From IMG/VR virus record IMGVR_UViG_3300042261_001186, positions 66,398 through 130,397 of that record: a stretch of 64,000 nt of DNA. One strand, 5' to 3'. The translations under genes and the position numbers were made by a program. This document shows positions 25,296 to 31,321 of the stretch, piece after piece; the first letter of the stretch is position 1, and every line of letters begins with the position of its first letter. The notes under the pieces were generated by a model. That model worked only from the letters and a program-made list of their open reading frames with translations. It had not been told where the DNA came from and did no database searches. The DNA comes from a virus.

Positions 25296-25605
25296 AGTCT
25301 TTCCTATATATTTTGGCATATTTATTAGGAAAATCATATTTAGATTTTATCACAATATAATCATCTTTTATTTCTACAACATTAACAATATAAAGTCTTT
25401 CTTTTTCCATAGTAGAGGTTCCTTCAATTTTATCATATAAATTTCCAGTATCATCATTCCAGACTGGTGAATAAAAAATTAATTTTATATCATTAAGTGG
25501 TACTATTTCATTTTCTCCTCTAACGACAACATCATCATCCCAATTTTCTTCATCAAATGGGTCATTCTCATTATATTGTTCAAATGTTTTAATCTTTGAT
25601 TTCAT
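25276..25605 (-). CDS. leader + DP-tag protein
   Basis: MKSKIKTFEQYNE-NDPFDEENW. Confidence 0.75.
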   Translation of the reverse strand: MKSKIKTFEQYNENDPFDEENWDDDVVVRGENEIVPLNDIKLIFYSPVWNDDTGNLYDKIEGTSTMEKERLYIVNVVEIKDDYIVIKSKYDFPNKYAKIYRKDFKVVSF

Positions 25606-25891
25606 ATTGATTGTCTTTTAGTTTAAAATAAAAGTTATTAGCTTTGAATATTGTATATTTTCCAGGTTCTGTGTAATTTACAATTTCATGGTTTGTTTTT
25701 TCATATTTTTTAATTACTTCAGCATTCAAATATTCTAAATAATAAATTTTAGTGTATTCAATATGACGACTTCTTTCACAATCATCTATAGTTTTATAAA
25801 ATTCAATATTAACAAGTCCTTTTACATATACATGTTTTGGATTATCATCCCAATTCTCTTCATCATAAGGATCTAATTCATTGTATACAGA
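25589..25891 (-). pseudogene. orphaned last module of the 25892 polyprotein (in frame beyond a TAA)
   Basis: Reads GLN-TAA-SVYNELDPYDEENW then about 100 open codons, no own start. Confidence 0.6.
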
Positions 25892-26737
25892 TTAATTTAA
25901 ACCAAATTCTCCTTTAAGAAACATAATTCCATTTCTATAATAACTATTTCTATTTGGATTTTTATCAAAAAATTCCTCTGCATCATTTCTAATAATTTCT
26001 ATTATTTCTTCTTTAGTTAACCAATGTCCTTTCCAAGCATATTGAGGTTTAATTTTAGGCCAAGATTCTTCTCCCCAATTCTCTTCATTATATGGGTCTA
26101 TTTCATTGGATTCATTAACTATTCTATCAAAATGAATATCAAAATCATATTTAGCAAAAACATATTTATATGGGTGTCCTTGTACAATTCCTATCATAAC
26201 AATATATTGATTATCTTCTTTGAAAATTTCATAATCTCTGTTACTGTGGAATATCCAATGTAAACCATTAGTAGTATGAACATCTCTTTTACAATGAGCA
26301 TAATGTTTTTTGTCTTCATCCCAATTCTCTTCATCATAAGGATCTATTTCATTATGTGTACTTTCAATGAAAAGTTCAGGATTTTCCATATATTTACCAT
26401 TTTTAAGGTCATTAAAAGAGTTTTTGAGATATATCCTATTTAAGGAATAGTAGATTTCATGAATGAAATCCTGTTTTTGGTTCGGTGTCAATCCAATTGT
26501 ATCAGACAATGAATCTAGGTAATGCTTTGTTTTTATGTAAACTTCAGTTTTATCGATTGTAGTCATGTATTCTTCTTGAAGATCGAATAGACCTTTTATT
26601 TCATCATCATTCAAACCTATTCTCCTAAGCCAATTTACTAATCTTTCTTTATATCGTCTTGGTTCATATTGACTTTCCCTCCAATTTTCTTCATTGTAAG
26701 GATCTATTTCATTGAAATCTTCAAATAGTTTAATCAT
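25892..26737 (-). CDS. modular DP-tag polyprotein (3 tags)
   Basis: Three EIDPYxEENW tags after FNE, IES, VNES. Confidence 0.8.
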   Translation of the reverse strand: MIKLFEDFNEIDPYNEENWRESQYEPRRYKERLVNWLRRIGLNDDEIKGLFDLQEEYMTTIDKTEVYIKTKHYLDSLSDTIGLTPNQKQDFIHEIYYSLNRIYLKNSFNDLKNGKYMENPELFIESTHNEIDPYDEENWDEDKKHYAHCKRDVHTTNGLHWIFHSNRDYEIFKEDNQYIVMIGIVQGHPYKYVFAKYDFDIHFDRIVNESNEIDPYNEENWGEESWPKIKPQYAWKGHWLTKEEIIEIIRNDAEEFFDKNPNRNSYYRNGIMFLKGEFGLN

Positions 26738-26970
26738 TTCTTTATAAAATACTTTTTAGTCTCCTCATCACTGAAAAGTAATTCTTTACCCCTATCATTA
26801 AAAACAGAATTAAAATGTTGTTTAGTATATTGAGCAGGAACTATTCTATCTATCATATAAGTATTACCTTTTGTAAAATTAAAATAAAACTCTTTAGCAA
26901 TTAGTAAATCACCTTCATTATAAGTTTCATCACCCCATTCTTCTTCATTGAAAGGGTCTACTTCACTAAT
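26734..26970 (-). pseudogene. frameshifted last module of the 26966 polyprotein
   Basis: Shifted frame gives ISEVDPFNEEEW + YNEGDLLIA...FTKGNTY module; its TGA overlaps the next ATG. Confidence 0.55.
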
Positions 26971-29549: not shown

Positions 29550-29843
29550 ATGTATATCTGGAACGACATTATATCACGCGATAAGCATTCTAAAATATTT
29601 GAAGTGGACATAAATCAATATAATCCTAATGATCCTGATTTCCCAAATAGACATTTTGTTGGATTTAAAAATGGTATAGTTAAAATGACAGAAGAAGAAA
29701 TAGTTGAAAGAATAAAAAATGGGGAAACCTTCTATACACTTGATAAAAGTGCTAAGGTTTTAATTTATGATGAAAAACATATTATTTCTAAAAAAGATAA
29801 AAAATTGGATAATAATATAAATAGATTACCATTAATGGATTAA
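29550..29843 (+). CDS. DUF3892-like protein
   Basis: IVERIKNGETFYT...KDKKLDNNINRLP pattern. Confidence 0.5.
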   Translation: MYIWNDIISRDKHSKIFEVDINQYNPNDPDFPNRHFVGFKNGIVKMTEEEIVERIKNGETFYTLDKSAKVLIYDEKHIISKKDKKLDNNINRLPLMD

Positions 29844-30122
29844 TCACAATTTATTGGTATTTTCTTTTATAATTTTTTTAACTACATCCAATTGTTTCTG
29901 ATAATCATTTTCATCAAAAAACCATTCATCATCAAACCCAAATTTCTTATTCAAAATATTATTTATAGAATCTATATCTAATGTTAAATTACCATCTCTA
30001 TCTATATAGTTTTTATATTTTAGGAAAGAAAATACTCTGAACAATTCTGAAAAAGAATCAACATAATCTAAATCTCTAACATTAAAGAGATCTTCTAGTA
30101 AAAATAATTTTAAATGTTTCAT
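29844..30122 (-). CDS. leader-bearing small protein
   Basis: MKHLKLFLLE. Confidence 0.65.
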   Translation of the reverse strand: MKHLKLFLLEDLFNVRDLDYVDSFSELFRVFSFLKYKNYIDRDGNLTLDIDSINNILNKKFGFDDEWFFDENDYQKQLDVVKKIIKENTNKL

Positions 30123-30136
30123 ATATTTTCTTTTTT

Positions 30137-31321
30137 TTAGTCTTCCAAATTATCTTCTCCCAATGGATCTATATCTGAATGTTCAAATCCAAAAGGTTCA
30201 TAAGACAAACAATTATCATGTCTACTGAATCCAGTCATTTTACCATAATCCCCCAATGCTTTACAAGAATACATTGGACTACTTCCCCTAAGGAATTTAT
30301 GTGGACTATTGTCATATGTTGTTATGTCTGTTATTTTCCACAAGGTGTTTCTATAATTGTCTTTGGCTTTGCTGTCATCTTCAATTATTCCACTATCATA
30401 AGCATTCCTACCTTTGAAATATACTACATCCCCAATCTTGAATTTAGGTATTGGAAATTCAGCACTTTCATTTGTTTTCTTTAAAAAGACACCATCTAAA
30501 GTTTCTTGATAAAAACCATTATATTTAGGACTATCATCATCCCAATTCTCTTCACCTAAAGGATCTACATCTATATGATTTTCATTTAATTTTTTCTTAG
30601 CAAATCTTTCCTTTGCCCAAAATTTGTCAATACCTCTAATTTTCAGAAATTCATGTCCTAATCCAAATTTTTCAGTGTCCACAACCTCATAATCTTTACC
30701 AGTTTTCAACAAATTTTCTGTTCCCCTCGGTACATTGGATTCATAATCATTTACACAAGTCACAATGTCACCAATTTCTATATTACTTAAATCATAATCA
30801 TTCCAATCTTCTTCTTCAAAAGGATCAATTTCTGTGTGACTTTCATTCAATTGTTTCCTAATAAACCTATTATTGTTCCAATATCTATTCAAACAACCAT
30901 CTATATCTAATATGACATGTTTACCATCTAGGTGAACTTCTAATACTTCATAATCATCACCATGATATAGTATATCATCAGAACCTGCACTATTTATACA
31001 GGTCAATATATCACCTCTTCTGAATGGATTGTCATCATCCCAATTTTCTTCACCAAGTGGATCTACTTCATTATGATTTTCATTCAATATTTTTTTGAAT
31101 CTAGATGGGTCCCAATAACCATCATCACCTTTGATTTTTATTGTTGGTTCACCTATAAAAATAACTATATCATCTACTATATATTGTTGATTTTTAAATA
31201 ATCTTATTCCGTCATAAGTACCTCTAACACAAATAACAGAATCACCAACTTCTATTTCATCCCAATTTTCTTCATTATATGGATCTATTTCTGAGTGAAA
31301 ATTTTCAAAAGATTTTATCAT
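30137..31321 (-). CDS. modular DP-tag polyprotein (394 aa, 5 tags)
   Basis: Repeated LNE[NS]H..[IV]DP..EE[ND]W followed by GD.[VL].C...L..G..Y.V modules. Confidence 0.85.
   Translation of the reverse strand: MIKSFENFHSEIDPYNEENWDEIEVGDSVICVRGTYDGIRLFKNQQYIVDDIVIFIGEPTIKIKGDDGYWDPSRFKKILNENHNEVDPLGEENWDDDNPFRRGDILTCINSAGSDDILYHGDDYEVLEVHLDGKHVILDIDGCLNRYWNNNRFIRKQLNESHTEIDPFEEEDWNDYDLSNIEIGDIVTCVNDYESNVPRGTENLLKTGKDYEVVDTEKFGLGHEFLKIRGIDKFWAKERFAKKKLNENHIDVDPLGEENWDDDSPKYNGFYQETLDGVFLKKTNESAEFPIPKFKIGDVVYFKGRNAYDSGIIEDDSKAKDNYRNTLWKITDITTYDNSPHKFLRGSSPMYSCKALGDYGKMTGFSRHDNCLSYEPFGFEHSDIDPLGEDNLED

Follow-up and report, generated by a model that had tools for sequence, protein, structure and literature searches.

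Strings of tagged small modules in a huge-phage contig: candidate cargo polyproteins of a T4-type head-assembly system

In bacteriophage T4, the prohead protease gp21 cleaves after L/I-X-E, degrades the scaffold to peptides and has its own ends processed, according to the available part of PMC9026906. The T4 capsid-targeting sequence (CTS), given as MKTYQEFIAE in the portion of PMC8442874 at hand, uses residues 4 and 7 for targeting and residues 8 and 10 for processing (PMC9026906, same part). In phages phiKZ, 201phi2-1 and SPN3US, the accessible sections of PMC9026906 and PMC5694885 describe big families of head-protein paralogues, propeptides with several sites and an inactive, truncated protease paralogue. 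Here, we describe three open reading frames (ORFs) in a 64,000-nucleotide (nt) stretch of viral DNA, hereafter the window, which encode strings of small modules joined by a recurrent motif and an acidic “DP tag”. It makes up the right half of a viral contig of 130,397 bp (IMG/VR record IMGVR_UViG_3300042261_001186; 182 ORFs), and coordinates refer to the window unless a contig position is stated. A DNA polymerase piece of the contig is 72.8% identical to that of the uncultured phage LR756501.1 (735,411 bp), the biggest genome in the Mahaphage clade, whose predicted hosts are Bacteroidetes (PMC7162821, as far as its available text goes). The complete 735-kb record (1021 ORFs) served as the comparison genome.

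All three ORFs lie on the minus strand. The largest (26966..29473; 835 amino acids, aa) opens with the leader MIKRFKTYE and contains seven DP-type tags and eight h-x-E-[SN] motifs, seven of which lie at module boundaries: LLES at residue 141 (29042-29053), LNES at 227 (28784-28795), LNES at 318 (28511-28522), INES at 406 (28247-28258), INEN at 514 (27923-27934), INEN at 597 (27674-27685) and FKES at 723 (27296-27307). Its modules comprise four of the SH3-like type, one beta-rich, one helical and, at the N- and C-termini, one each of unknown type. The 394-aa ORF (30137..31321) starts with MIKSFENFHSE and has four SH3-like modules and five tags, the final one at the extreme C-terminus; its joints are LNEN 79 (31076-31087), LNES 158 (30839-30850), LNEN 245 (30578-30589) and TNES 283 (30464-30475). 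In the 281-aa ORF (25892..26737), the leader MIKLFEDFNE precedes three tags and the joints FIES 123 (26360-26371) and VNES 207 (26108-26119), and the first module is the helical one that also occurs in the 835-aa ORF.

The consensus of the joint is h-x-E-[SN] followed by H-x-[DE]-[IV]-DP-x-x-E-E-[DN]-W; at 28784..28795, for example, LNES is followed by HLDV-DSFSEEDW. All 13 internal module boundaries in the three ORFs carry [LIFVT]-x-E-[SN], the residue at P3 being L or I at nine of them, F at two, and V and T at one each. The DP-type tag (D-P-x-x-E-E-[DN]-W or a near variant) comes four to five residues after the motif at 11 of the 13; the exceptions are LNES 318, where the tag is degenerate, and TNES 283, which has none. 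The DP-bearing ORFs contain ten [LI]NE[SN] motifs, against 0.8 +/- 0.9 in shuffled sequence. Cutting the three ORFs in silico at the repeated motif yields units of 74-180 residues. The first-pass annotation had described the ORFs as strings of small modules, and the six junction strings that it quoted are all present in the translations. Ribosome skipping of the 2A type at the joint is not called for by the C- and N-terminal placements of the tag.

A fourth unit, with another junction, tag and module, lies behind the in-frame TAA of the 281-aa ORF (25589..25891, minus strand), consisting of SVYNE-L-DPYDEENW (tag at 25850-25873) and some 90 further aa. This stretch does not begin as a gene of its own (no ATG, GTG or TTG ahead of 25729), and it is either a decaying unit or one that depends on read-through. 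Since the unit stands past a stop codon and lacks a start codon of its own, units appear to be gained or lost at this locus. We saw no sign of stop-codon recoding there, as the stop is a TAA and translation table 11 leaves the head genes open.

Ten of the modules align into one family, in which G-D is invariant and a Y and an F are nearly so. An AlphaFold model of one unit predicts a confident small barrel over residues 21-79 (pLDDT 88-93) behind a disordered tag (pLDDT 46-51), with no confident contact between tag and barrel in cis; taken together, tag and joint are predicted to be disordered at pLDDT 35-51. Among the top matches listed by Foldseek, many are Spt5/NusG KOW, SH3, Tudor, chromo and PsaE folds (best E 0.037; probability 0.85-1.00; TM 0.40-0.52), and Pfam and PHROGs give weak matches only. 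For the commonest cargo module, the model and the fold comparison point to a probable SH3-like fold, as proposed in the first-pass annotation, though no Foldseek match reached E <= 0.001. The helical module, said to recur in two different polyproteins, does so: 112 aa align between the 835-aa and 281-aa ORFs with 36% identity (E 1e-13 with the tags masked). Its AlphaFold model is mediocre (mean pLDDT 64.5) and, in a structure search, resembled no known fold (best match at E 1.2).

No match of the three ORFs, of their neighbours or of 23 further ORFs with the motif rose over the curated cut-offs of Pfam and PHROGs, and the 835-aa ORF had zero matches by tblastn in 50,697 phage records. A profile of the unit collected 508 cluster representatives at E <= 0.001, in which a single protein may hold as many as 11 barrels. 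Among the best 151 of these 508, 54 have the strict tag and 34 the leader, while 97 are without a strict tag. Single units of leader, tag and barrel (82-101 residues) are common, and close relatives of the 394-aa ORF share its architecture, one with a GNAT module and another with a zinc ribbon.

A head module of T4 type lies in the left half of the contig: a gp20-type portal (phrog_213, 7.8e-69), a protease fused to a scaffold-like region, a Gp23-type major capsid protein (PF07068, 3.5e-26; T4 gp23 chains 5vf3 and 6uzc, E 6e-4 to 9e-4) and a head-closure protein. The protease is of the gp21 family (Peptidase S77; phrog_207, 2.5e-28). Its Pfam domain PF03420 stays below the cut-off in the query (E 4.7e-6 to 5e-4) and is found among the precomputed domains of many homologues; the catalytic-type residues H77 and S132/S133 are invariant in 42 sequences. 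In the 735-kb phage, a 178-aa protease paralogue has Tyr and Arg-Pro in place of the invariant His77 and Ser132/133.

The 823-aa protease-scaffold protein (contig 55710-58181; protease domain in residues 1-175) itself contains motifs of the joint type: LNES at 17-20, LNES at 171-174, where the protease domain ends, FNES at 177-180, INET at 661 and MNES at 704, along with some 13 repeats of Y-S-E-Y-I-A-E-N in the scaffold part. We aligned 60 family members of 42-79% identity. At the first site, position 17 is I, L or V in all 60, N18 is kept in 51 and E19 in 60; at the second, L, I or M (171), N172 and E173 are each found in 60 and S174 in 59; at the third, 704 is L, M or I in 59, 705 is N or K in 60, E706 is kept in 59 and 707 is S or N in 59. 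The N-terminal part of the capsid protein carries M-N-E-N at 41-44, and in 68 sequences position 41 is L, M, V or I in 68, with N42 in 67, E43 in 68 and N44 in 68. Outside the DP-tagged ORFs, three or more [LIMF]NE[SNAT] motifs occur, in both phages, only in the two protease-scaffold proteins (seven and five). The cutting of T4 gp21 after (L/I)-x-E, stated in the first-pass annotation, agrees with the available part of PMC9026906. From this rule and from the near-invariance of the motif in the protease and capsid families, at places at which T4 counterparts undergo processing, we infer that the protease of this phage cuts [LIM]-N-E|[SN], exactly the joint of the polyproteins; the motif thereby constitutes a concrete, testable prediction of the specificity of the enzyme.

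The polyprotein starts (MIKRFKTY, MIKSFENF and MIKLFEDF) all fit MIKxFxx[FY] and belong to a larger set of N-terminal leaders. The pattern ^M.{0,3}K.[FY]..[FY] is present in 24 of the 182 contig ORFs (1.3 expected) and in 61 of the 1021 ORFs of the 735-kb relative (5.5 expected). The leader consensus is K-x-[FY]-x-x-[FY]-[ILV]-[NK]-E, with the [ILV]-[NK]-E part in most; MKKYNEFIFEG and MKKFQEFLNEA are examples from the contig. An [LIVM]xE directly follows 45 of 85 leaders, against 22 of 231 internal controls. As a sequence pattern, the leader matches the T4 CTS type, and the internal joints of the polyproteins retain just its processing-type part. One contig ORF (contig 45915-47384) has the leader, including its Met, at an internal domain joint, an arrangement conserved in the 735-kb relative. 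Leader and tag are associated both in the contig (odds ratio 5.2, p 0.001) and in the relative (odds ratio 2.9, p 0.006).

The DP tag is a peptide motif found throughout the lineage. A strict DNA pattern for DPxxEE[DN]W matches 27 times in the window, where 0.00 matches are expected, and none of 100 shuffles had any. In the whole contig, there are 42 tag peptides in 27-29 ORFs, depending on the pattern, on both strands; they follow a short leader at the N-terminus, separate two domains or form the extreme C-terminus. Their third codon positions vary in a roughly genome-like manner (GAT/GAC 31:11; CCT/CCA/CCC 23:18:1; all four Gly codons), so that conservation acts on the peptide and not on a DNA repeat. 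This variation, together with the N-terminal and internal placements, rules out a DNA repeat or a ribosome-binding site (RBS) as the nature of the tag. The 735-kb phage yields 60 strict DNA matches versus zero for a control pattern, and 74 tag peptides in 66 of its 1021 ORFs (34 C-terminal, 12 N-terminal and 28 internal). In IMG/VR, the tag was found in at least 161 stretches on many large contigs, and the matches listed comprise 177 distinct contexts. A looser pattern had zero matches in five other large phages (LR756504, LR745206, Lak-A2, LR756500 and Chryseobacterium phage MA9V-2), and Mahaphages of 634-642 kb are without the DP tag. A full-text literature search with the tag peptides (DPYGEE-type variants) found no phage paper; a search of the literature on Mahaphages and huge phages, prohead protease and capsid targeting turned up no account of the motif, and the word “protease” is absent from PMC7162821.

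By Pfam and PHROGs, the tag carriers are nearly devoid of known domains. Those of the 735-kb phage that have any include GNAT and nucleotidyltransferase proteins and a deaminase/CCA-adding enzyme fusion of 1179 aa, in which three tags serve as linkers; others correspond to parts of this phage's capsid protein, portal, protease, scaffold and tail sheath. The tag is present on 8 of 17 such fragment paralogues of virion proteins versus 65 of 1004 other ORFs (p 7e-6). Fragment ORFs lie at 42565-42798 and 42901-43524 in the window and at 11314-11850, 145582-146127, 552409-552918, 619760-620383, 48028-48549 and 553796-554218 in LR756501.1; they are diverged (30-44% identity to the phages' own virion proteins) and about half are DP-tagged. 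The ORF at 42901..43524 (plus strand, 207 aa), for instance, is similar to the phage's major capsid protein over residues 148-231 of the latter (E 1e-4 to 3e-4) and has a DP tag as its C-terminus. The region around it (42001-44000), with its capsid-like fragments and two DP tags (43489 and 43712), reaches a G+C content of 0.38 (0.25-0.30 elsewhere) and has overlapping ORFs on both strands.

Orthologues may differ in the presence of the tag. The 300-aa protein encoded at 51502-52404 (minus strand) and a protein of 245 aa in the 735-kb phage share 49% identity, and the former has an extra insert of 55 residues that contains a DP tag flanked by a partly duplicated copy of the adjacent sequence.

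In the best available reading, to which we would give a probability of about 0.5, the three genes encode cargo polyproteins of a T4-type head-assembly system that would be cut within the capsid into tagged pieces. The leader (M-I-K-x-F-x-x-[FY]...E) would act like a CTS and bring the precursor into the prohead core, where the gp21-family protease would cleave after the Glu of each [LI]-N-E|[SN] joint, in a linker predicted to be disordered. Cleavage would free small SH3-like, helical and other modules, each of which would then begin with the acidic tag [SN]-H-x-[DE]-[IV]-DP-x-x-E-E-[DN]-W. This tag may be an address label in its own right, specific to the lineage and present by itself on many other proteins, which would dock on a phage-encoded partner, most likely in the head. 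By analogy with the T4 internal proteins, the pieces might then leave the capsid with the DNA.

The first-pass annotation had proposed head-packaged polyproteins cut by the protease, each a repetition of one unit of protease site and DP tag. Comparison lends partial support to the packaging and cutting, through the gp21-family protease, the matching motif and the CTS-type leaders. The repeating unit stands in the three ORFs and has to be given up as a general rule: the tag is not peculiar to these ORFs, occurs throughout the lineage and is mostly without the cut-site motif. At the fixed offset of -8 from the tag, [LI]NE[SN] is seen for six contig tags.

Several observations weigh against the cargo reading. 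Site and tag are coupled in 1 of 74 cases in the 735-kb phage and, among the IMG/VR matches listed, in 12 of 111 contexts that are not C-terminal and in 0 of 60 that are; beyond these genes, the two are mostly uncoupled and, thus, two separate elements. Since the joints are copies of one another, the shared motif is partly a matter of common descent. Some leader or tag carriers of the 735-kb phage are enzymes that would be odd as cargo: a DeoC aldolase, a SAM methyltransferase and the deaminase/CCA-adding fusion. The leader is on 13% of the contig ORFs, which is a high share, and K, F, Y and I may be common there owing to an AT-rich 5′ coding end. As to the capsid protein, one pattern used for collecting the sequences included the motif itself, and many of the sequences collected differ ahead of it; the alignment with T4 gp23 spans residues 358-581 only and misses the N-terminus, so that the presumed capsid cut site is not anchored on T4. 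Finally, there is no cultured carrier: in the 50,697 phage records, the single-unit protein matches only the metagenomic 735-kb record by tblastn.

The tag may have a wider role, which we put forward tentatively and hold to be doubtful: the DP peptide could be a second, undescribed address label of one huge-phage lineage, readable at the N-terminus, at the C-terminus or in linkers, which would allow nearly every kind of domain to enter the capsid and reach the next host. The domains delivered would then include barrels, enzymes and even parts of the capsid, portal, protease and sheath proteins of the phage itself, and units chained behind protease sites would make of one gene a set of tagged effectors. 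A complex prediction of scaffold residues 585-823 (alignment of 42 rows) with the leader, tag and barrel unit (17 rows), run without controls, returned a score of 0.00 and no verdict.

Alternatively, the three ORFs could encode multi-domain proteins that stay uncleaved, the joint being a flexible acidic linker and the DP motif docking on a common hub outside the capsid, e.g., a multivalent scaffold; arrays of SH3-like barrel and tag would then work as one multivalent assembly. Peptide binding is typical of SH3-like barrels, the tag is predicted to be disordered and it sits at the termini and in the linkers of many unrelated proteins, enzymes included, while untagged arrays of the same barrel are common, as the 97 representatives without a strict tag illustrate. 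We nevertheless regard this explanation as unlikely, as it accounts neither for the residues ahead of the tag, which copy the near-invariant motif of the protease and the capsid protein, nor for the CTS-type leader, and the model has no confident contact in cis between tag and barrel.

It appears even less probable that the tag is a signal for degradation or turnover, timing the life of small proteins. Its reader could be a host protease or the phage's own Clp-type two-ring AAA+ ATPase (734 aa; contig 50662-52866, plus strand), a ClpB/ClpC-like protein encoded beside the head genes (phrog_4871, 4e-237; AAA_2, 1e-62; ClpB_D2-small, 1e-25; no recognisable Clp N-domain). About half of the tags in the 735-kb phage are at the extreme C-terminus, as degrons often are; many others, however, are internal or near the N-terminus, one protein has up to seven, and nothing ties the ATPase to the tag. 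The joint could also be a recombination scar, with conserved DNA at the ends of cassettes driving their shuffling and the peptide being neutral. Such an origin would fit the difference in tag presence between orthologues, as in the 55-aa insert at 51502-52404, the tags that end fragments of many genes and the biased tag codons of the 735-kb phage (CCT in 49 of 74 versus 35% genome-wide; TAC in 55 of 74 versus 36%). Against it, the synonymous codons in the contig show a roughly genome-like variation behind fixed amino acids, and the peptide is kept across phages whose capsid proteins are just 46-80% identical; we consider it very improbable.

The polyprotein genes are accompanied by smaller relatives, and single-unit genes are indeed separate at 24155, 24942 and 25276, as had been noted from the sequence. 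The 109-aa gene at 25276..25605 (minus strand) has the leader MKSKIKTFEQYNE, the tag NDPFDEENW and one module. On the plus strand, the 88-aa gene at 24155..24421 combines the leader MIKLFEEFN, a degenerate tag (IDPSDASKW) and one SH3-like module with a KEEDIEWF tail, which contains the RBS and the ATG of the next gene. The latter (24412..24951, plus strand, 179 aa) has two SH3-like modules, with YNES after the start and MNES at the internal joint; both modules end in KEEDIEWF, the stop of the first having been lost in an in-frame fusion. The 117-aa gene at 24942..25295 (plus strand) carries a DP tag at 25050-25073, with KHSDI ahead of it.

Plus-strand tails of the form [YI]-K-E-E-[DN]-I-E-W-x-stop are coded AAA GAG GAG GAY ATA GAA TGG. 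GAG GAG is used in 8 of 14 (GAG makes up 10% of Glu codons) and ATA in 14 of 14 (54% of Ile codons), and the start codon of the next ORF falls within the E-W codons in 9 of 14. In small tandem genes, KEE[DN]IEW tails coded AAAGAGGAGGAYATAGAATGG lie at 24398-24421, 24928-24951, 33160-33183, 33402-33425, 33671-33694, 34278-34301, 34538-34561, 38187-38210 and 39366-39389, with the stop codon 4-7 nt after the start of the next gene. The KEEDIEW tail is, in other words, a Shine-Dalgarno-like stretch with an embedded start codon, largely a translational-coupling cassette and not a peptide tag. So strong a Shine-Dalgarno-like element would be unexpected if the host belonged to the Bacteroidetes, the predicted host group of the clade.

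The motif TAATATATA stands 6 nt ahead of the ATG of the 835-aa gene (29479..29487, minus strand), ahead of the 394-aa gene (31327-31335, minus strand) and ahead of the gene at 24155 (24141-24149, plus strand). Of its 42 copies in the contig, 33 sit 0-50 nt 5′ of a start codon, mostly at 6 nt or at about 19-32 nt, and it also precedes the portal, giant tail-fibre and Clp-type ATPase genes and several leader-bearing genes. It looks like a promoter element. We rejected it as a mark of late promoters: it precedes two of the three polyprotein genes and the portal and tail-fibre genes, but many unassigned genes too, and, therefore, does not decide the timing of expression.

Elsewhere, the window has a G+C content of 25-30%. 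A family B DNA polymerase is encoded in two genes some 80 kb apart, at contig 37621-39132 (plus strand) and window 54032-55717 (minus strand), covering positions 109-501 and 569-854 of the phrog_262 profile. ARAGORN places a tmRNA gene at 20736-21133, with the tag peptide GKNQIL.

If the cargo reading is true, the T4 rule of a leader and an L/I-X-E cut would reach the largest known phages, where it would work at a much larger scale, on units in chains and with a tag besides. One could then list, from sequence only, what uncultured huge phages are likely to carry in their capsids, and the tag would offer a natural modular means of loading proteins into large capsids.

Among known systems, encapsulins offer a parallel, as their cargo-loading peptides, short and terminal, send unrelated cargo into an HK97-fold shell. 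The DP tag, often placed at a C-terminus, brings these peptides to mind, with no likeness in sequence. The giant phages phiKZ, 201phi2-1 and SPN3US, with their head and ejection proteins, have a gp21-like protease that cuts after Glu, as predicted here; the cryptic protease paralogue of SPN3US resembles the 178-aa paralogue of the 735-kb phage, which is without the invariant His and Ser. Their motif, unlike the one described here, is S/A/G-X-E, and neither a shared acidic tag nor strings of small cleaved barrels is mentioned in the available parts of the two sources (PMC9026906, PMC5694885). According to the same parts, those systems rest on mass spectrometry, whereas ours rests on sequence.

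The closest parallel is with the T4 internal proteins (IPI, IPII, IPIII and Alt), which are targeted by the CTS and processed by gp21. Unlike in T4, a single ORF here links several modules, with the processing part of the leader recurring at every joint; the motif has a tighter form (N at P2 and S or N at P1′) and is followed by the additional acidic Trp tag, the cargo is acidic and not basic, and leader-bearing genes are far more numerous (24 of 182). Shared with T4 are the T4-type portal, the gp21-family protease and the Gp23-type capsid protein; a short N-terminal leader whose Lys, two aromatic residues, Ile/Leu and Glu are spaced as in T4; a candidate cut motif that has Glu at P1 and Leu or Ile at P3; and a diverse, fast-changing cargo behind a conserved leader.

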